From Spirochaetia bacterium (GTDB lineage: Bacteria; Spirochaetota; Spirochaetia; UBA9216): a DNA stretch of 64,000 nucleotides. The stretch covers positions 480,001-544,000 of the forward strand of contig OZ223272.1 in assembly GCA_965140585.1 (NCBI GenBank). Direction: 5' to 3'. Under the pieces are notes generated by a model that worked only from the letters and a program-made list of their open reading frames with translations, had not been told where the DNA came from and ran no database searches. Both the position numbers and the translations under genes were made by a program. Positions within the stretch are counted from its first letter, which is position 1, and each line of letters opens with the position of its first letter. Positions 352 through 48,137 of this stretch are shown here, in pieces.

Positions 352-443
352 CTATAACGTTCCAGGGTTATACGACGTTCGGCAAAGCCGAATGTGGCGC
401 AGCCCGGAGGCCGTATGGCCGGAGCGAATAACCCTTGTTATAG
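352..443 (-). repeat. attC-like site (kinase type, 92 bp)
   Basis: CTATAAC...GTTATAG outer pair, AGGGTTAT/ATAACCCT inner pair, internal hairpin ACGTTCGGC-AAA-GCCGAATGT. Confidence 0.85.
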
Positions 444-494
444 GCAGTAAGCGCCTCTTTGATTACATGTAGTGAGGCACGGATGCCGAACGGA

Positions 495-702
495 AATCTT
501 TCTTCTTAATCTTTCTTCTTAATCTTTCTTCTTAATCTTTCTTCTTAATCTTTCTTCTTAATCTTTCTTCTTAATCTTTCTTCTTAATCTTTCTTCTTAA
601 TCTTTCTTCTTAATCTTTCTTCTTAATCTTTCTTCTTAATCTTTCTTCTTAATCTTTCTTCTTAATCTTTCTTCTTAATCTTTCTTCTTAATCTTTCTTC
701 TT
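495..702. repeat. 13-bp tandem repeat (AATCTTTCTTCTT)x16
   Basis: 208 bp = 16 exact units counted by hand. Confidence 0.95.
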
Positions 703-1191
703 AACAACATCTTCATAAATCATTGAAACAGCATCTGGAATGGATAAGTTTGAATTAATTCTGCTCTCAGAAATAATTCCAATCAAATCTTCTTCTCTCC
801 ACCACTTCCTCATATCCTCTTCTCCAAAATCAGAACTATTTGATTTCGATTTATGTCGTCGTATTGTCTCTTCAAAAGATAAATCATAATAATAAGCAAA
901 TATTTCAGAGTCAAATTCTTCTATTGCTTTTTTAAATAATCTAAGATAATAATCTGAGTATAAAATACCTTCTAAAATTACAAATTCTGAATTTCTCTTT
1001 CCATATTTAATTAATTCCTCTAAAAGTGGGATTGCCTTATTTTCAATTCTATCATGAACCCATAACATCTCTCTTCTTATATAATCCTGAGAAATCATCA
1101 TAGTATTTCGACCCAATTTTCTTTGTAATGATTTTGCTAAGGAAGTTTTTCCACTTCCTGAATTACCTCTAATAATTATTAGCTTTGACAT
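688..1191 (-). CDS. P-loop kinase (AAA_33/nucleoside-kinase-like), cassette copy 1
   Basis: Walker A IIRGNSGSGKT, 167 aa; AGAGGG RBS. Confidence 0.85.
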   Translation of the reverse strand: MSKLIIIRGNSGSGKTSLAKSLQRKLGRNTMMISQDYIRREMLWVHDRIENKAIPLLEELIKYGKRNSEFVILEGILYSDYYLRLFKKAIEEFDSEIFAYYYDLSFEETIRRHKSKSNSSDFGEEDMRKWWREEDLIGIISESRINSNLSIPDAVSMIYEDVVKKKD

Positions 1192-1268
1192 CTACTTTTT
1201 ATTTCCCTCTTAGAATCCGCCACGGAAGGCGGATTTCTTTCTTCTCGAAAAATCTTGGCGCTTATTGC

Positions 1269-1360
1269 CTATAACGTTCCAGGGTTATACGACGTTCGGC
1301 AAAGCCGAATGTGGCGCAGCCCGGAGGTCGTATGGCCGGAGCGAATAACCCTTGTTATAG
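1269..1360 (-). repeat. attC-like site (kinase type)
   Basis: Copy of 352-443 with one internal SNP (ggaggtcg). Confidence 0.85.
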
Positions 1361-1379
1361 GCAGTAAGCGCCTCTTTGA

Positions 1380-1913
1380 TTACATGTAGTGAGGCACGGA
1401 TGCCGAACGGAAATCTTTCTTCTTAACAACGTCTTCATAAATCATTGAAACAGCATCTGGAATGGATAAGTCTGAATTAATTCTGCTCTCAGAAATAATT
1501 CCAATCAAATCTTCTTCTCTCCACCACTTCCTCATATCCTCTTCTCCAAAATCAGAACTATTTGATTTCGATTTATGTCGTCGTATTGTCTCTTCAAAAG
1601 ATAAATCATAATAATAAGCAAATATTTCAGAGTCAAATTCTTCTATTGCTTTTTTAAATAATCTAAGATAATAATCTGAGTATAAAATACCTTCTAAAAT
1701 TACAAATTCTGAATTTCTCTTTCCATATTTAATTAATTCCTCTAAAAGTGGGATTGCCTTATTTTCAATTCTATCATGAACCCATAACATCTCTCTTCTT
1801 ATATAATCCTGAGAAATCATCATAGTATTTCGACCCAATTTTCTTTGTAATGATTTTGCTAAGGAAGTTTTTCCACTTCCTGAATTACCTCTAATAATTA
1901 TTAGCTTTGACAT
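1380..1913 (-). CDS. P-loop kinase, cassette copy 2 (single repeat unit, 10-aa C-terminal extension)
   Basis: Same protein with an N->D change; reads through to FRSASVPHYM. Confidence 0.85.
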   Translation of the reverse strand: MSKLIIIRGNSGSGKTSLAKSLQRKLGRNTMMISQDYIRREMLWVHDRIENKAIPLLEELIKYGKRNSEFVILEGILYSDYYLRLFKKAIEEFDSEIFAYYYDLSFEETIRRHKSKSNSSDFGEEDMRKWWREEDLIGIISESRINSDLSIPDAVSMIYEDVVKKKDFRSASVPHYM

Positions 1914-1990
1914 CTACTTTTTATTTCCCTCTTAGAATCCGCCACGGAAGGCGGATTTCTTTCTTCTCGAAAAATCTTGGCGCTTATTGC

Positions 1991-2082
1991 CTATAACGTT
2001 CCAGGGTTATACGACGTTCGGCAAAGCCGAATGTGGCGCAGCCCGGAGGCCGTATGGCCGGAGCGAATAACCCTTGTTATAG
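1991..2082 (-). repeat. attC-like site (kinase type)
   Basis: Copy of 352-443. Confidence 0.85.
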
Positions 2083-2133
2083 GCAGTAAGCGCCTCTTTG
2101 ATTACATGTAGTGAGGCACGGATGCCGAACGGA

Positions 2134-2276
2134 AATCTTTCTTCTTAATCTTTCTTCTTAATCTTTCTTCTTAATCTTTCTTCTTAATCTTTCTTCTTAA
2201 TCTTTCTTCTTAATCTTTCTTCTTAATCTTTCTTCTTAATCTTTCTTCTTAATCTTTCTTCTTAATCTTTCTTCTT
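2134..2276. repeat. 13-bp tandem repeat (AATCTTTCTTCTT)x11
   Basis: 143 bp = 11 exact units. Confidence 0.95.
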
Positions 2277-2765
2277 AACAACATCTTCATAAATCATTGA
2301 AACAGCATCTGGAATGGATAAGTTTGAATTAATTCTGCTCTCAGAAATAATTCCAATCAAATCTTCTTCTCTCCACCACTTCCTCATATCCTCTTCTCCA
2401 AAATCAGAACTATTTGATTTCGATTTATGTCGTCGTATTGTCTCTTCAAAAGATAAATCATAATAATAAGCAAATATTTCAGAGTCAAATTCTTCTATTG
2501 CTTTTTTAAATAATCTAAGATAATAATCTGAGTATAAAATACCTTCTAAAATTACAAATTCTGAATTTCTCTTTCCATATTTAATTAATTCCTCTAAAAG
2601 TGGGATTGCCTTATTTTCAATTCTATCATGAACCCATAACATCTCTCTTCTTATATAATCCTGAGAAATCATCATAGTATTTCGACCCAATTTTCTTTGT
2701 AATGATTTTGCTAAGGAAGTTTTTCCACTTCCTGAATTACCTCTAATAATTATTAGCTTTGACAT
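2262..2765 (-). CDS. P-loop kinase, cassette copy 3
   Basis: Protein identical to 688-1191. Confidence 0.85.
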   Translation of the reverse strand: MSKLIIIRGNSGSGKTSLAKSLQRKLGRNTMMISQDYIRREMLWVHDRIENKAIPLLEELIKYGKRNSEFVILEGILYSDYYLRLFKKAIEEFDSEIFAYYYDLSFEETIRRHKSKSNSSDFGEEDMRKWWREEDLIGIISESRINSNLSIPDAVSMIYEDVVKKKD

Positions 2766-2842
2766 CTACTTTTTATTTCCCTCTTAGAATCCGCCACGGA
2801 AGGCGGATTTCTTTCTTCTCGAAAAATCTTGGCGCTTATTGC

Positions 2843-2934
2843 CTATAACGTCCCGGGGTTATACGACGTTCGGCAAAGCCGAATGTGGCGCAGCCCGAAG
2901 CCCGAATGGGCGGAGCGTATAGCCCCTGTTATGC
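2843..2934 (-). repeat. attC-like site (A type, 92 bp)
   Basis: ATAAC-GTCCCGGG-GTTATACG...CGTATAGC-CCCT-GTTATGC; left half shared with kinase-type sites. Confidence 0.85.
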
Positions 2935-3328
2935 GACGTCGCCTTTATTAGAGAAAGATTCCGACCAATCAAACGATCTAAATAATCTCCTCTTACCATT
3001 TCTACCCAATATTCTATTCGCCCTTTGCGACTTTCACAATCATTTTTATTTTACCTGCAAGTCAACGAGCAAAGCGAGTGTGGCAGACTTGCCAAACGGA
3101 AAAACCTGTCATGCCCACGAAGCAGATTTTGATAATTATAAGCCAATACTTTTTCTTTAACGTCAGAACAAACATCGTCCAGCGCAACGACCTTCTTTTA
3201 ACAACCAAATCAAAATCCAAAATCTTCCTCATTCCAGGGCGAATTGAATATTGTAAACTATTTGGTAATCACTTGTGGTTCGGAACTTTCTCCACCCCAA
3301 GATCATGCTCCTGCGATGTCCGCATAAC
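2850..3328. other. ORF-less cassette A1 (479 bp), candidate structured RNA/ssDNA
   Basis: No ORF conserved across copies; nested inverted repeats; near-identical to A2 and A3. Confidence 0.75.
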
Positions 3329-3413
3329 GTCCCGGGGTTATACGACGTTCGGCAAAGCCGAATGTGGCGCAGCCCGAAGCCCGAATGGGCGGAGCGTATA
3401 GCCCCTGTTATGC
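3322..3413 (-). repeat. attC-like site (A type)
   Basis: Copy of 2843-2934. Confidence 0.85.
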
Positions 3414-3809
3414 GACGTCGCCTTTATTAGAGAAAGATTCCGATCAATCAAACGATCTAAATAATCTCCTCTTACCATTTCTACCCAATATTCTATTCGC
3501 CCTTTGCGACTTTCACAATCATTTTTTTTCACCTGCAAGTTAACGAGCAAAGCGAGTGTGGCAGACTTGCCAAACGGAAAAACCTGTCATGCCCACGAAG
3601 CAGATTTTGATAATTATAAGCCAATACTTTTTCTTTAACGTCAGAACAAACATCGTCCAACGCAACAACCTTCTTCTAACAACAACCAAATCAAAATCCA
3701 AAATCTTCCTCATTCCAGGGCGAATTAAATATTGCAAACTATTTGGTAATCACTTATGGTTCGGAACTTTCTCCACCCCAAGATCATGCTCCGGCGATGT
3801 CCGCATAAC
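3329..3809. other. ORF-less cassette A2 (481 bp)
   Basis: Near-identical to A1, with SNPs and small indels. Confidence 0.75.
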
Positions 3810-3981
3810 GTCCGCGGTTATGTGATGTTTTGTGGTCGGGCCCTACAGGCCGATTGGCAACTCTTTTGCATTCAGCGCCTTTACCCTCTATCTTGCTACT
3901 ACTTCGCAAAAGTGGTGACAAAGCAAAATATGCCGCAGGCCAAGGAGCGTTTAGCGACGCCGCACATAGCCGCTGTTATAC
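3803..3981 (-). repeat. attC-like site (B type, ~179 bp)
   Basis: ATAAC-GTCCGCG-GTTATGTG...CACATAGC-CGCT-GTTATAC. Confidence 0.8.
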
Positions 3982-4372
3982 GCCGTCACAGAATAAAGAA
4001 AGTTGTACATCATCTTCATAATCTAAACATTTATTTCACATTTCAAACTTCTTTAATATTCTATTCGACCATACTGACTTTCACAATCTTTTTTATTTAC
4101 TCCGCAAAATAACGAGCTTTGCGAGTGGGCCAGTTTTGCATAAACGTTTCTGCATGCCCCAGCCCCGTACAGATTTTGATTATTCCAAAGCCAAAACTCT
4201 TTCATAGAACGTCAGAAAAAAGTCATTGTTTGAAATTTTTCTTCATCAAAATAGAAATCAAAATCTGAAATCATATCTTAGTCGAAGAGAATATTGCCAA
4301 CTTATTATTTCATTATTAAGCGCAGCAACTTTCTTCCACCCAATATCCTTGCCCAAAGTGATGGAGTATAAC
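3810..4372. other. ORF-less cassette B1 (563 bp), divergent homolog of the A cassettes
   Basis: Shares blocks AATATTCTATTCG, GACTTTCACAATC, AACGAGCnnnGCGAGTG, CAGATTTTGAT, AACGTCAGAA and AATCAAAATC with A. Confidence 0.75.
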
Positions 4373-4514
4373 GTCCGTGGTTAAGCGAAGCTGATGCGCA
4401 ACTAAAGGAGTGTTTTGCGAATGCGCAAAACCGACTGACCCTGCTCTACTTCTCCGTAAGCTTCAGTTTGGGTGAAAGCGCCATGGCGCTTTCACCGCTT
4501 AACCATTGTTATGT
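4366..4514 (-). repeat. attC-like site (C type, ~149 bp)
   Basis: ATAAC-GTCCGTG-GTTAAGCG...CGCTTAAC-CATT-GTTATGT; internal palindrome GGTGAAAGCGCCATGGCGCTTTCACC. Confidence 0.8.
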
Positions 4515-4622
4515 GCTTTGAGCCCGACATCCAGACCGTTCAACGGAGTTAGGTCTGGATTCTTCTTTTCTTTTCCCAGGATTCTGAAAATAATCAATAC
4601 TGCTGTAAACACGTATTATGTT

Positions 4623-5201
4623 TTATAATCCTATTACTCTATTCCAATCTGCAATATACATATAAATTCTTTGAAATTCTGATGGTAGTAGCATTCTATT
4701 ATGTGCTATAAAATTTCTTGTTTTTTCAAGTTCATCCATTCTTTGTTTTAACCAATGTTGCGATGGTATCAAGGTTTCAAAAAAATGCCAAAACTCAATC
4801 ATAATTTGAGACAGCATTCCAAAATCTATAAAACCAAGAAGATCAGATTTTTCACCTTCTAACCAACTATCTTTTAAAGCGGATTCCTGACGTCTTTGAG
4901 CATGATCTTTTATTCTATTTGGAATCGAATCCCACCAATTTACCCCGATATTTTCCTGTAATGTTTCTCGAATTAGATCTCTTATTTCATTTTCAAAACA
5001 AAATATTAAACTATATAAACGAGACATTTCTAGTGCTTTATTTCTCCTATTAATCGAGAAAGGAGAGATAACCTCATTTGTTAAATCTATCTCAGTTCTC
5101 GAATCAGAAGCCCCTATTTGTATTCCTGCTTTTTGAAATTTATTTGCTTCAGATTCAAACATTAACCCTCGAAAAAGATAATCTCTTAAATCTTTAGTCA
5201 A
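4623..5201 (-). CDS. Swt1-like HEPN domain protein (putative RNase effector)
   Basis: FENEIRDLI...WW helix, IDFGML motif, HEPN Rx4H motif RNFIAH; TTG start with AAGGAG RBS overlapping the upstream stop. Confidence 0.75.
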   Translation of the reverse strand: MTKDLRDYLFRGLMFESEANKFQKAGIQIGASDSRTEIDLTNEVISPFSINRRNKALEMSRLYSLIFCFENEIRDLIRETLQENIGVNWWDSIPNRIKDHAQRRQESALKDSWLEGEKSDLLGFIDFGMLSQIMIEFWHFFETLIPSQHWLKQRMDELEKTRNFIAHNRMLLPSEFQRIYMYIADWNRVIGL

Positions 5202-5814
5202 TTAAATGCTCCTTAACACTTTTAAATATTGCGTTATAAACTTCTATATCTTTTGTTGCTGGTAAATGTATCTGAATATTATAATGTAATGAAGTTTGAC
5301 TGATCTTCCTTTCAATTGACTCAATTTTTTCTGGCTCGATTTCTTCTTTCTCATTATCATTATCTTCTACTATTTTTGTCTCTTCAACTACATCAGAATT
5401 TATATCTGCAAATTCTAATAGTGAATAAAATGTTTTCATCATCAATTCTGCATTGCGTTCTGAAGTATTATGAGTACTTTTAAACTTACCTTTTATTAAT
5501 TCTTTATCTTTATCTTCAGGATATCTGCTAATAGTAAAAATATCCGAATATGCCTCTTTAATTGCTTTGCCCAAGATTTTTCGTGATAAAGCTTCATTTC
5601 TAAATTCTTTATATTCATCAGTTGGTGATCCATCCTCTGTTAAAAACCCTAAAGCTTTTAATAATGGAATAAATGCTCTATGATTAGTCGAAGTAAATCC
5701 TATATCTTTCAAATGCTGATTAGTAAATTTCCCAGGAGCTTGTCCTTGTTTTATTTTATTAAAAAAATCTCCTAATTGACCATAAACTTGCAGCGGAATA
5801 TTTGCCAAACTCAT
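5194..5814 (-). CDS. DUF5343-like protein
   Basis: QAPGKFT..HLKDIGF.S.N.R...LLKALGFL..DG.PT..Y pattern and C-terminal LHYNIQIHLP, recognised from memory. Confidence 0.7.
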   Translation of the reverse strand: MSLANIPLQVYGQLGDFFNKIKQGQAPGKFTNQHLKDIGFTSTNHRAFIPLLKALGFLTEDGSPTDEYKEFRNEALSRKILGKAIKEAYSDIFTISRYPEDKDKELIKGKFKSTHNTSERNAELMMKTFYSLLEFADINSDVVEETKIVEDNDNEKEEIEPEKIESIERKISQTSLHYNIQIHLPATKDIEVYNAIFKSVKEHLID

Positions 5815-5961
5815 ATTCTCTCCCTTTATTTAAATTATTTCATATATATAACATTATAACGCTAAAATAATAATTTGGATCCTTAAAAATCACAACTTAA
5901 ACATTCTCTCTTCGCCCGTCGGCCGGAGGTCCGGGCGTCTTCCTCTTGTCGGGCTCATTGC

Positions 5962-6139
5962 ACATAACGTCCCGCGGTTATGTGATGTTTTGTGCTCGGC
6001 CCTACAGGCCGATTGGCAACTCTTTTGCATTCAGCGCCTTTACCCTCTATCTTTCTCCATTTCGCAAAAGTGGTGACAAAACAAAATATGCCGCAGGCCA
6101 AGGAGCGTCTAGCGACGCCGCACATAGCCGCTGTTATAC
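5962..6139 (-). repeat. attC-like site (B type, ~178 bp)
   Basis: Near-copy of 3803-3981. Confidence 0.8.
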
Positions 6140-6531
6140 GCCGTCACAAAATAAAGAAAGTTGTACATCATCTTCACAATCTAAACATTTCTTTCACATT
6201 TCAAACTTCTTTAATATTCTATTCGACCATACTGACTTTCACAATCTTTTTTATTTACTTCGCAAAATAACGAGCTTTGCGAGTGGGCCAGTTTTGCATA
6301 AACGTTTCTGCATGCCCCAGCCCCGTACAGATTTTGATTATTCCAAAGCCAAAACTCTTTCATAGAACGTCAGAAAAAAGTCGTTGTTTGAAATTTTTCT
6401 TCATCAAAACAAAAATCAAAATCTGAAATCAGATCTTAGTCGAACAGAATATTGCAAACTTATTATTTCATTATTTAAGCGCAGCAACTTTCTTCCACCC
6501 CATATCCTTGCCAAAAGTGATGGAGTATAAC
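5969..6531. other. ORF-less cassette B2 (563 bp)
   Basis: Near-identical to B1. Confidence 0.75.
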
Positions 6532-6616
6532 GTCCCGGGGTTATACGACGTTCGGCAAAGCCGAATGTGGCGCAGCCCGAAGCCCGAATGGGCGGAGCGT
6601 ATAGCCCCTGTTATGC
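6525..6616 (-). repeat. attC-like site (A type)
   Basis: Copy of 2843-2934. Confidence 0.85.
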
Positions 6617-7014
6617 GACGTCGCCTTTATTAGAGAAAGATTCCGATCAATCAAACGATCTAAATAATCTCCTCTTACCATTTCTACCCAATATTCTATT
6701 CGCCCTTTGCGACTTTCACAATCATTTTTATTTCACCTGCAAGTCAACGAGCAAAGTGAGTGTGGCAGACTTGCCAAACTGAAAAAACCTGTCATGCCCA
6801 CGAAGCAGATTTTGATAATTATAAGCCAATACTTTTTCTTTAACGTCAGAACAAACATCGTCCAACGCAACGACCTTCTTATAACAACAACCAAATCAAA
6901 ATCCAAAATCTTCCTCATTCCAGGGCGAATTGAATATTGCAAACTATTTGGTAATCACTTATGGTTCGGAACTTTCTCCACCCCAAGATCATGCTCCGGC
7001 GATGTCCGCATAAC
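6532..7014. other. ORF-less cassette A3 (483 bp), first cassette next to the attI-like site
   Basis: Near-identical to A1 and A2. Confidence 0.75.
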
Positions 7015-7079
7015 TCAGAATTATAAACTGGAATATCGTGCATATAACCCTCTAGATCCAGTACTTATAAACCTGTTAT
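7008..7079 (-). other. Putative attI-like insertion site
   Basis: Cassette sequence ends at GCATAAC (7014) and is followed by non-attC sequence with further ATAAC/ATAAAC motifs, directly downstream of the recombinase stop. Confidence 0.65.
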
Positions 7080-8153
7080 TCATAATAACCCGTCCAGTGG
7101 ACTATTTATATTTTTTAGGTCTTTAGTACTTACATGTGTATAAATCTGTGTTGTTTTTGGATCACGATGGCCTAAGAGCTCCTGAATATATCTGAGGTCT
7201 GTACCGTTTTCCAACAGGTGAGTGGCAAAGGCATGTCTTAAAGAATGTATACTTACATTTTTTTCAATACCTGTTGCTTCGATAGCTTTATAAAAGGCGT
7301 TCTGTGCAGATCTTGTAGCAAGATGGGTATCCGCACCTGCACTGCCAGGAAAAAGCCATGTATGTACCATCACTTTGGATCTGTATTCATTAATCATATG
7401 AATAATCTCAGTTGAAAGCATTACATATCTATCTTTTCGTCCTTTTGCCTGCCTGATATGAATTACTTTCCTATCGGTGTCAATATCCTGCAACTGTATT
7501 ATAACTGCTTCGCTTACTCGGAGACCTGCAGAGTATATTAATGATAATAGCAATCGGTGCTTAATATTCGGCGGAGATGTTATAATCTTCTTTACTTCTT
7601 CCCTGGATAGAATATCCGGATACTTCTTTTCTTTTTTCGGCATGGGAATCGATGCTGCAGGATTAAACAGACCGCCTAGATATCCGTATTTATAATAGCA
7701 TTTCAGGGCGCTCACACATTGTACAAAGTATGTTCTTGAGCATCCTGCAAGTGTCCGCATTTTCTCAAGATATATTTTAATATCCTCTGTCGTAACCTCT
7801 GAAGGATAAAGTTCTGTTCTTTCAAAGAACCACTTCAGCTGCATCTTATATGTTTCGATAGTATGAGGACTATAGTCTCTAAGCTTTAGATACTGCAGCA
7901 TCTTTTCCAGATAGCGGTTATGAGACGGTTCCTGATTTTCGAGAGACTTCTCATCCACATTAAACCTGCCGGTTTTATACAATGACAAAAGAAAGTGCTG
8001 CATATTTGCATCTGTATCCGGAAATGTCCATTTTTTATTTGCCGGCTGCCATTGTCTTCCCGGTATTGTACGTACAATATCAAGAACCTGAGCATCGAAA
8101 GGGAAAAATATACCTATTTTATTATTTTCTTCATAAACGATTTCAACTGCCAA
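7080..8153 (-). CDS. Tyrosine recombinase with N-terminal extension and SAM-like domain; lacks the IntI-specific insertion
   Basis: Catalytic set: AGLRVSE (R), AKGRKDR (K), HSLRH, LLGH, TQIYTH (Y). N-terminus FPFD..V...VRTIPGRQW....KKWTFP. Confidence 0.92.
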   Translation of the reverse strand: MAVEIVYEENNKIGIFFPFDAQVLDIVRTIPGRQWQPANKKWTFPDTDANMQHFLLSLYKTGRFNVDEKSLENQEPSHNRYLEKMLQYLKLRDYSPHTIETYKMQLKWFFERTELYPSEVTTEDIKIYLEKMRTLAGCSRTYFVQCVSALKCYYKYGYLGGLFNPAASIPMPKKEKKYPDILSREEVKKIITSPPNIKHRLLLSLIYSAGLRVSEAVIIQLQDIDTDRKVIHIRQAKGRKDRYVMLSTEIIHMINEYRSKVMVHTWLFPGSAGADTHLATRSAQNAFYKAIEATGIEKNVSIHSLRHAFATHLLENGTDLRYIQELLGHRDPKTTQIYTHVSTKDLKNINSPLDGLL

Positions 8154-8174
8154 TACTTTATCCGTTTTTATTTT

Positions 8175-8203
8175 ATATTAGCAGACCTATGCCGAATCAG
8201 CAA
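8175..8203 (-). promoter_or_regulatory. Possible sigma70 promoter for the recombinase
   Basis: Minus strand TTGCTG-17 bp-TAATAT with a TGn extension. Confidence 0.35.
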
Positions 8204-46533: not shown

Positions 46534-46543
46534 AATCCCGTTA

Positions 46544-46642
46544 TTCTTCCGAACCCTGATACCTAAAAATCACAATATTTAAGGAATGAGGGTCGAAGGG
46601 CTGTTCCGGAAACAGAACAGCCTCCCGTGTTTGGAAAGGAAG
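46544..46642 (+). promoter_or_regulatory. Moco/Wco (molybdenum/tungsten cofactor) RNA motif
   Basis: TCCGA...CCTAA...GG..., GGCTGTTC-CGGAAACA-GAACAGCC hairpin, then GCCTCCCG...GGAAAGGA that overlaps the RBS; matches the Moco motif hallmarks as I recall them. Confidence 0.78.
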
Positions 46643-46646
46643 TGGG

Positions 46647-48137
46647 ATGCTCAAAAAATCGATTCTTGTTCTCTTATTGATCTCAGCCTCAGCAAGCGTC
46701 AGTGCTCTTGATTTCACCCTGAATGGAAAACTCTGGAAATCTTTTACATCTGAAAACCTTCATACACTCAGCTATCCGGTACCTGCAGAGGACAATAAGG
46801 CTGTTGGAATATCTATCGATGAGCTCTTCCCTCCTATGTATGAAGCATGGAAAATAAATATTTCAATTGACGGCGGCCTGATAGAAAAAAAAGAAAATCA
46901 GCTTGCCGATCTGCTTCCCCGGATTTATCTGACAGAAACAGATTCAGGATGGGCACTTAAAGGTCCCGGATGGACTGTCGAGGATGTTCAGGGCATTGAT
47001 TTACGAGGTGAAAAGCTGATTACCTCAAAGCTTGAAATATGGACAAACTGGGAAGGTGAAGATCTTCTGAAAGAAGAAATCAGCAGATATGCAGAGCTGC
47101 ATAACATCAGCATAAACACGGTTTCCGTTCCCCGGCCCGACTCCAAACTCATTGCCGTTTCAGGCGGAGGAGGAAGCGTTCCCGATATAATAATGGTTCA
47201 ATCGACCTATATGGAAAGTCTTTCGAAATCGGAAAGTATACAGAACCTTGATTACATGTATCCGGAAGGACTTATAAAAGAAGGCCGGGAGGTTTTCAGT
47301 CTTGACGGAAAAACCTGGGCGGTCCCATTTTACTATGATGCCCAGATGATGTTCATCAACACCGGGCTGATGGATACTCCAAAAAACAGCTGGACAACGA
47401 AAGACTATGAAACTTATGCCTCGCAGTTAAAAGCCCGGGGAATAATTCCGTCGGCATGGAACGCCTACTCATCATCTTTTCTTATCCCCTTTCAGATAAG
47501 CTTCGGTAAAAAGACGCTGATTGAACCTGACGGCTCGGTAATCATAAATGATGAGGCAAATATCAGATCACTTAAGTATATTCTTAGCCTGCAGGGGAGG
47601 GGCCTGATGGAGCCGATGGAACGTGATGCCATGACATCGATGTTTGTATCAGGAGATGTTGGTATGATCATAAGCGCCTCATACAGCATTCCCTATTTTG
47701 AAAAGCTTGGCATACCCTTTGAGGCAGTGCCGCTGCCGATCAACTCCGAAACCGGAATCCGGCTTTCAGGCCTTCTTGATTTCAAGGGTTTTGCAGTGCC
47801 TAAAAAAAGCCGCAATACCGCCGCAGCCGTCAGACTGATCGAATATCTCTGCGGAGCAGGCGTTCAGCAGAGATTTACCGCAGCCGTTTCAAAACTTCCC
47901 GCATCAGAAGAAGCACTGAAGCTTGCCGCAGATGCAAACAGATACATGAAGCAACTGACCATCGGATCGGAAACCGGGACAATAATCCCACCGGATCAGG
48001 CTTTTGGAATATATAAGAATACAATGTGGAAAATGCTTAGATTCGCGCTTTCAGGAAGGATGTCTCCTGAAGCTGTCTTGGAACAGACTCAGAAGATTAT
48101 AAATAACAACTTACAGCAAAAAAAGGAGATAGAATGA
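46647..48137 (+). CDS. Sugar-type (CUT1) ABC substrate-binding protein with N-terminal extension
   Basis: Signal peptide; PDII, DGKTWAVP, FVSGDVGMII in the C-terminal ~370 aa. Confidence 0.8.
   Translation: MLKKSILVLLLISASASVSALDFTLNGKLWKSFTSENLHTLSYPVPAEDNKAVGISIDELFPPMYEAWKINISIDGGLIEKKENQLADLLPRIYLTETDSGWALKGPGWTVEDVQGIDLRGEKLITSKLEIWTNWEGEDLLKEEISRYAELHNISINTVSVPRPDSKLIAVSGGGGSVPDIIMVQSTYMESLSKSESIQNLDYMYPEGLIKEGREVFSLDGKTWAVPFYYDAQMMFINTGLMDTPKNSWTTKDYETYASQLKARGIIPSAWNAYSSSFLIPFQISFGKKTLIEPDGSVIINDEANIRSLKYILSLQGRGLMEPMERDAMTSMFVSGDVGMIISASYSIPYFEKLGIPFEAVPLPINSETGIRLSGLLDFKGFAVPKKSRNTAAAVRLIEYLCGAGVQQRFTAAVSKLPASEEALKLAADANRYMKQLTIGSETGTIIPPDQAFGIYKNTMWKMLRFALSGRMSPEAVLEQTQKIINNNLQQKKEIE

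Follow-up and report, generated by a model that had tools for sequence, protein, structure and literature searches.

The window analysed here is a 64,000-nt stretch of a Spirochaetia genome (G000, contig C9:480001-544000; C-numbers denote the contigs of this genome). It contains nine hairpin sites set among gene cassettes, an attI-like junction and, beside these, the gene of a Xer-like tyrosine recombinase, P0001. All nine sites lie on the + strand and combine a 5′ box AAC-N7/8-GTT with a 3′ box A(A/G)C-N4-GTT, as claimed in the original prediction, and the spacers of their 5′ boxes are exactly those that it had listed (GTTCCAGG and GTCCCGGG three times each, GTCCGCG, GTCCGTG and GTCCCGCG). 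The nine fall into only four distinct types (A to D). There is an extra, partnerless 5′-box match at 5068, inside an open reading frame (ORF). Searched with a 17-nt 5′-box pattern, the window gave seven matches, always on the + strand, where 0.16 matches are expected from shuffled sequence and none of 100 shuffles reached seven. The sites and the platform beside them are given below, R1 being a covariance model built from sites of this kind (hereafter window-type sites).

352 to 443, folded strand +: site S1, type A, 92 nt; 5′ box from 354, 3′ box from 430; R1 score 106.7 bits
1269 to 1360, +: site S2, type A; 5′ box from 1271, 3′ box from 1347; R1 match
1991 to 2082, +: site S3, type A; 5′ box from 1993, 3′ box from 2069; R1 match
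2843 to 2934, +: site S4, type B, 92 nt; 5′ box from 2845, 3′ box from 2921; R1 match
3322 to 3413, +: site S5, type B; 5′ box from 3324, 3′ box from 3400; R1 match
3803 to 3981, +: site S6, type C, 179 nt, with N7 spacer, 3-nt bulge and long variable centre; 5′ box from 3805, 3′ box from 3968
4366 to 4514, +: site S7, type D, 149 nt, with N7 spacer; 5′ box from 4368, 3′ box from 4501
5962 to 6139, +: site S8, type C, 178 nt; 5′ box from 5964, 3′ box from 6126
6525 to 6616, +: site S9, type B, the final site ahead of the platform; 5′ box from 6527, 3′ box from 6603; R1 match
7005 to 7079, no strand assigned: attI-like junction with direct GTT(T)AT repeats; the last cassette ends in ...CATAAC (7010) and homology with the sister genome begins at 7012
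7080 to 8153, - strand: P0001, Xer-like tyrosine recombinase of 357 aa with HARP-like N-terminal, core-binding and catalytic domains and no IntI insertion; co-directional with the cassettes

A search of the whole genome with the 5′-box pattern returned 30 forward matches, no reverse matches and no matches to the control pattern. A looser scan of the genome recovered at least 32 true sites, all on the + strand, between C9:455966 and 486616, which make up an array of ~31 kb with 25 distinct sequences among its 32 sites. The nine sites in the window are the last nine of these and therefore represent the proximal end of the array, which stops at window position 7010; the 3′ end of the recombinase gene is 70 nt away. 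The cassette genes are on the - strand, and several cassettes have no ORF.

When folded as DNA, the + strand of the sites forms an 8-bp R stem, a bulge in the 5′ arm of 4 nt (3 nt in sites with an N7 spacer) and a continuous L stem, reproducing the predicted 3-4 nt bulge beside the R box and the L stem free of bulged bases. Folding of both strands, which had been proposed as a check, favoured the + strand in each of the four types (-24.2 against -17.8, -22.1 against -17.3, -33.7 against -32.7 and -29.7 against -28.8 kcal/mol), and in two of the four the best fold of the - strand leaves the outer R stem open. With DNA parameters the + strand is the stabler one in 32/32 sites of the array, by 3.6 kcal/mol on average, and the same folded strand is stabler in 53/53 sites from related genomes. 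No Rfam family matches the sites at gathering thresholds.

The structure is also supported by covariation. We aligned 21 distinct short sites (alignment A1) and scored the specified structure against shuffled and slid controls. In total, 93.9% of cells were paired, a value reached by none of 500 shuffles (85.5%), with ~32-49% paired in the slid controls. Of the 11 pairs in the L stem, 5 had changed on both sides, as had 3 of the 9 pairs in the inner hairpin. The G·T pairs that had been reported for the + strand resolve in A1 into two invariant positions, one beside the R box (21/21) and one in the inner hairpin (20/20), together with an L-box pair that is a wobble in 11/21 sites; since these pairs are G·T on the + strand, they would be A·C mismatches on the other. 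At the hairpin junction, immediately 5′ to the 3′ L arm, is a conserved, unpaired and purine-rich segment (GGAG/GAAG; columns 74-77 of A1, with window 425-428 as an example). We checked by eye whether the bulge pairs with this segment and dropped the idea, as there was no covariation.

These properties bear on the idea that the sites work as double-stranded Xer/dif-like sites flanking modules, in the manner of pdif modules and with no hairpin. Such an arrangement would suit a Xer-like enzyme, and the 3′ box, read as a duplex ATAA-N6-TTAT, resembles dif. However, compensatory changes run through the 11-bp stem and the inner hairpin, the invariant G·T exists on one strand only, and one strand is stabler at every site of the array. 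The junctions between cassettes, described next, argue in the same direction and make this a very unlikely explanation.

The crossover was mapped with 26 pairs of sites whose interiors are at least 95% identical. The right flank was at least 90% identical in 24 of the 26 pairs, whereas the left flank was less than 60% identical in 21. As right flanks are kept and left flanks diverge, each site is part of the cassette to its right (+ strand) and lies downstream of that cassette's gene. In 17 of those 21 pairs the sequences, followed leftwards, part 4-6 nt to the left of the C in the 5′ AAC. This places the crossover within or next to the + strand's 5′ AAC, at a resolution of ~5 nt. Junctions are found at one end of the site only, contrary to what dif-like modules would give, and the spacers of recombined sites differ, so that a two-strand exchange would be blocked.

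A comparison with the sister genome G001 shows turnover of the cassettes. Its recombinase is 96% identical to P0001; an initial search of genome contigs for homologues picked up the sister genome alone. The platforms are homologous from window position 7012; most of the cassettes are different or reordered. By eye, an attI-like block is common to G000, G001, G004 and G007 and not evident in G006, G012 and G056. GC-rich hairpins downstream of genes could also be read as repeated palindromes with another role, such as terminators or REP-like elements, that are not recombination sites at all. We regard this as the least credible of the alternatives, since the same site occurs with unrelated left neighbours and sharp breakpoints at AAC, cassette content and order differ between the sister genomes while the platform is conserved up to the junction, and all sites sit in one array beside a recombinase.

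We then compared the geometry of the sites with that of classical attC sites, as described in Nivina 2016. The AAC/GTT triplets are invariant in window-type sites, and the flanks NNATAAC/GTTATNN differ from RYYYAAC/GTTRRRY at one position. As in integrons, folding favours the gene-complementary strand and the crossover falls at its 5′ AAC (within ~5 nt). The arms themselves are unequal. In the AAC-bearing 5′ arm, 5 or 4 nt (G followed by TTCC, TCCC or TCC) separate AAC from the stem, while the 3′ arm has a single nucleotide that pairs with the G of the 5′ arm. By this sequence rule the longer arm is the 5′ arm in 32/32 sites of the array (modal lengths 5 and 1 nt). The minimum-free-energy fold agrees in 30/32, and walking along that fold gives a single 4-nt or 3-nt 5′ bulge with a clean 3′ arm in 27/32. 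In sites of relatives the rule finds a longer 5′ arm in 42 of 53, makes no call in 11 and never gives the reverse; minimum-free-energy walks are noisy on the same 53 sites (14 equal, 8 opposite), and the sequence rule is the cleaner measure.

With spacers of 7-8 nt (5′) and 4 nt (3′), the claim of a non-canonical geometry with asymmetric spacers is therefore borne out. All four bases of the 3′-arm spacer are paired, so the unpaired central spacer of ~5-6 nt in each arm (canonical values from Nivina 2016) is absent from window-type sites. In classical attC sites the extrahelical bases are close to L″, opposite the bottom strand's AAC triplet, with a 6-bp stem separating the first such base from the last one (Nivina 2016). 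The asymmetry of window-type sites is larger than that of attC and of opposite sign. It is this sign, and not spacer length as such, that constitutes the key departure from the canon, a point absent from the original prediction.

The same genome allows the contrast to be drawn internally, as it also has a true IntI and 15 classical sites. IntI is encoded at C6:916649-917575 and scores 374.7 bits with TIGR02249 (cut-off 265), with the insertion visible. It corresponds to an ORF of 419 aa, and the array, in divergent orientation, comprises at least 15 sites, each ~135 nt long (C6:916649-945000). On their bottom strand these IntI-linked sites have spacers of 4 and 5 nt and an extra C in L″, and in their consensus fold a small two-sided loop is accompanied by two 1-nt bulges, both in the 3′ arm and 6 bp from each other. 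More unpaired bases are on the 3′ arm in 15/15 of them. The two site types have an R box in common, ATAAC-G ... T-GTTAT, including its G·T.

P0001 itself is closest to the Xer recombinases. Its best family is NF040815 (XerA-type; 229.4 bits, cut-off 220), whereas TIGR02249 gives 192.8 bits, below the cut-off of 265, in a match split into two stretches. It shares 30% identity with the IntI of its own genome but is 31+8 residues short at the position of the IntI insertion, and thus has no counterpart of the I2 helix region found in integron integrases. Residues R212, K237, H303, R306, H329 and Y338 are invariant among 40 homologues. The closest solved relatives are XerA (4a8e, E 9.7e-63) and VchIntIA, and the best structural match is 2a3v. 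Residues 1-60 form a ββαββα domain in the predicted structure (pLDDT 92). Pfam HARP scores 22.5 bits on P0001, below its cut-off of 25, and 25.8 bits on a 57% identical homologue (P0003). The top Foldseek match to residues 1-60 is the HARP domain of SMARCAL1 (4o66; E 0.038, probability 0.99, TM 0.61), and VIA ranked the N-terminus of T4 UvsW first (Z 5.7), followed by XPB (Z 5.3) and 4o66 (Z 4.6), so that no Z-score reached 6. HARP, UvsW N-terminal and XPB domains bind branched or junction DNA. Two further Xer-like genes are present on contig C4, and these could serve dimer resolution.

The association between gene and sites was followed through 61 genomes of the class Spirochaetia, G000 included. 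R1 matched in 18 of the 61. Homologues of P0001 with at least 50% identity were found in 10, all of which have R1 sites, and gene and sites share a contig in seven (G000, G001, G004, G006, G007, G012 and G056), the recombinases of which have 50-96% protein identity. In 7/7 testable genomes the array starts 0.3-1.9 kb 3′ of the recombinase gene and folds on the opposite strand. Where IntI is also encoded, it is on a different contig or ~1 Mb from the Xer-linked array. The A(A/G)C-N4-GTT arm, which had been likened to dif half-sites, holds in the lineage of the window; the L box of relatives is often GAATAT/ATATTC, not GGTTAT/ATARCC, and so has no AAC/GTT. Relatives retain the R box with its G·T, the N4 spacing and the pyrimidine bulge of 4 nt. 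In two genomes of another family, arrays end at a shorter Xer-like ORF (G018:C2:570440-571231 and G054:C1:2504969-2505757), which has no N-terminal domain match, one in-frame TAG and its 5′ end towards the array (divergent).

More distant homologues were examined with a hairpin scan of 80 loci around their genes. This was noisy at loose settings; stricter settings and a motif search yielded a family in Bacteroidota. The Bacteroidota recombinases are full-length homologues of P0001 (34-38% identity, N-terminal domain included), and the adjoining sites, of ~132 nt, have CAAC-G, 3-4 extra bases in the 5′ arm, a long stem that is rich in G·T on that strand, and TGTTG. The 5′ arm is longer in 10/10 of these sites and the same strand is stabler in 10/10. 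Searched with a model of them (R3), three Flavobacteriaceae genomes gave 44, 53 and at least 69 copies, a Bacteroidales genome gave 1 and a fifth genome gave 0. These counts are descriptive and not a frequency, as the genomes were picked because the motif scan had found sites in them. The architecture of the window recurs at 3 of 4 recombinase loci of the three site-rich genomes, and one locus differs. Many site copies in Flavobacteriaceae G061, G062 and G063 are on short contigs or at a distance from the gene of the recombinase, so that arrays or single sites are dispersed. None of the five Bacteroidota genomes has an IntI over the TIGR02249 cut-off (best score 127 bits). In Bacillota the hairpin scan gave only one hairpin beside one gene (L079). 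The covariance-model search that had been proposed was productive in Spirochaetia (R1) and Bacteroidota (R3).

A true IntI in the same genome raises the question of whether the sites are simply an unusual attC family of that enzyme, in which case the array would have no integrase of its own and the Xer-like gene beside it would not be the enzyme. The R box common to the two site types and the intermixing described below would fit this. Yet the array adjoins the Xer-like gene in every testable genome while IntI is elsewhere, Flavobacteriaceae have the same geometry and recombinase family in genomes with no IntI over the cut-off, and one site type dominates each array (32 to 1 in the array of the window, 15 to 1 in the IntI array). 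We therefore consider this explanation unlikely, albeit the strongest of the alternatives.

Taken together, we consider it probable that the nine sites serve recombination in a cassette platform that resembles an integron and is distinct from the classical integron of the same genome, and that the likeliest enzyme is the adjacent Xer-like recombinase. The data show structure, strand bias, covariation, a crossover placed to ~5 nt, linkage to an enzyme family and turnover of cassettes between sister genomes. From these we infer which enzyme acts, that the chemistry would involve a single strand, and that the bulge and the N-terminal domain would have roles in it, as well as a mode of recognising the single-stranded DNA hairpin that differs from that of classical integrons.

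Several observations weigh against such a separation. The genomes compared are related and so are non-independent samples. True IntI is encoded in 21 of the 61 genomes, among them 12 of the 18 with R1 sites. Moreover, some attC sites recombine well without extrahelical bases (Nivina 2016). The likeness of the N-terminal domain to HARP is weak, and Z-scores of this size may mean that only a common arrangement is shared. Excision was sought by comparing window 2780-8200 with contig-level sequence, where the joints (for example 4557-4569 to ~5912, and 6614 back to 2827) come from short contigs of a repeat-rich array and were indistinguishable from other, similar-ended cassettes, which gave no read-level evidence of excision.

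The two site types also intermix. At E<=1, a second covariance model (R2), built from IntI-linked sites, matched none of the 32 sites that stand alone in the array of the window, and R1 with filters off matched none of the 15 IntI-linked sites of the genome; both models are narrow. R2 nevertheless matched 11 places in Xer-type arrays of six genomes, 8 of them nested and 3 stand-alone. The nested composites are ~320 nt long, with an IntI-type site inside the extended inner hairpin of a window-type site, and were found in G000 (C9:478668-478990), G001 (four), G007 (two, one with a decayed 5′ arm) and G018. The inner L boxes of the composites covary, and the composite is conserved across these four genomes. 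In the opposite direction, R1 identified a well-formed window-type site inside the IntI array of G001 (C3; L075:5740-5830), on the same folded strand as the sites around it, and also a single copy, inverted and decayed, in the contig C6 array. Since IntI-type sites occur in Xer-type arrays, many of them nested, IntI could process them too, which is a further point against a strict separation. Each site type being present in the array of the other, the two systems share cassettes or sites, and either enzyme may act on some sites of the other. The claim that site and enzyme depart from the canon in a matching way is thus upheld in part: both differ, and the pairing recurs in other genomes, but it is not exclusive. 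The match of site and enzyme is a tendency, not a rule.

If P0001 is the acting enzyme, the following sequence of events can be proposed. Each cassette ends in a site that folds, on the gene-complementary strand (+ in the window), into a hairpin with an R box (yTAAC/GTTAr) and its invariant G·T, a 3-4 nt pyrimidine bulge (TTCC/TCCC) one base past AAC, an uninterrupted L stem of ~11 bp and a structured centre. Cassettes are joined at the 5′ AAC, as in integrons, with the difference that the extra bases are on the crossover arm. The adjacent recombinase, which has all catalytic residues and lacks the insertion that reads classical extrahelical bases, would place one monomer on the R box and one on the L box of the folded strand. 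The bulge might kink or free the cleaved strand and so fix which monomer cuts. One strand would then be exchanged with the attI-like site by the gene or with another site, and replication would resolve the product.

The contents of the cassettes in the window are listed below.

688 to 1191, - strand: cassette gene, P-loop AAA_33 kinase-like; further copies at 1380-1913 and 2262-2765
4623 to 5814, - strand: two-gene cassette with DUF5343 (5194-5814) and HEPN_Swt1 (4623-5201)
2935 to 3321, no strand assigned: ORF-less cassette body, type B; repeats at 3414-3802 and 6617-7010
3982 to 4365 and 6140 to 6524: ORF-less cassette bodies, type C

The ORF-less cassettes are ~390 bp long and present three and two times, and each has a conserved 18-nt inverted repeat, the copies being ~210 nt apart. 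A structured RNA or a promoter may be present in them. A perfect 13-nt tandem repeat, TTTCTTCTTAATC, occupies part of the interval from the site to the kinase-like gene's 3′ end (495-704, 2134-2277 and one unit near 1415). It has ~16, 11 and 1 copies in three otherwise identical cassettes, in which the ORF is 167 or 177 aa, and the tract may be prone to slippage. Elsewhere in the window, a molybdenum cofactor riboswitch was identified at 46535-46657 on the + strand (74.6 bits, gathering score 36).

The platform shares a number of properties with known systems. As in classical integrons such as those of class 1 or with the Vibrio VCR, there is one site per cassette, with AAC/GTT triplets, a crossover at the 5′ AAC of the gene-complementary strand, better folding of that strand, a variable and structured centre, and an attI-like site by the recombinase. 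Unlike them, it has a recombinase with no IntI insertion and an extra N-terminal domain, an R box NNATAAC where the classical one is RYYYAAC, and a 3-4 nt bulge in the AAC arm in place of an extrahelical base opposite AAC and a two-sided central bubble. Archaeal XerA and bacterial XerC/XerD with dif represent the best sequence families of P0001, and the half-site spacing in this lineage is 6-bp-like. However, dif is a single double-stranded site per replicon, with two arms around a centre of 6-8 bp, serving dimer resolution, in contrast to at least 32 sites with stem covariation and a strand-specific G·T. CTX phage integrates its single-stranded DNA at dif through XerCD acting on a folded hairpin with an imperfect centre, and the single-strand exchange is resolved by replication. 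That system differs in having a single phage site, a chromosomal dif and two host enzymes, with no cassette array, dedicated recombinase or HARP-like domain. Coleman reportedly described inverted chromosomal integrons of Treponema in 2004. The Treponema integrons belong to the same phylum and share the orientation, but have a true IntI and attC sites with a 'protruding G' (Wu 2013, PMC3607928).

In the full-text literature searched, with subscription journals and supplements outside the search, we found neither an account of a Xer-like recombinase operating cassette arrays nor one of this site geometry. The present analysis adds the asymmetry of the arms, the comparison with a classical integron inside one genome, and dual sites of the nested kind. 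More tentatively, and with somewhat less confidence than doubt, these data suggest a second lineage of hairpin-based gene capture, with Xer-like recombinases, a HARP-like structure-sensing domain in place of the IntI insertion and mirrored attC asymmetry, the bulge being on the cleaved arm, that would be widespread in Spirochaetota and Bacteroidota and, in Spirochaetia, coupled to classical integrons through shared R boxes and dual sites, with cassettes shuttling between them. The presence of a classical and a mirrored system in one genome offers a direct experimental handle on how asymmetry sets the choice of strand and subunit. If the inferred mechanism holds, tools that rely on IntI and classical attC for detection would overlook entire classes of platform for gene capture, including those of Bacteroidota and of genomes now scored as having an 'integrase-less attC cluster'. 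Extrahelical bases are regarded as set features of attC sites (Nivina 2016), and integron integrases moved from double- to single-stranded recombination by acquiring the I2 helix (Escudero 2020). Here, a recombinase without the I2 helix is tied to sites that have every sign of single-strand folding and none of the classical extrahelical bases. If this is true, hairpin recombination arose, or persists, without the innovation of IntI.

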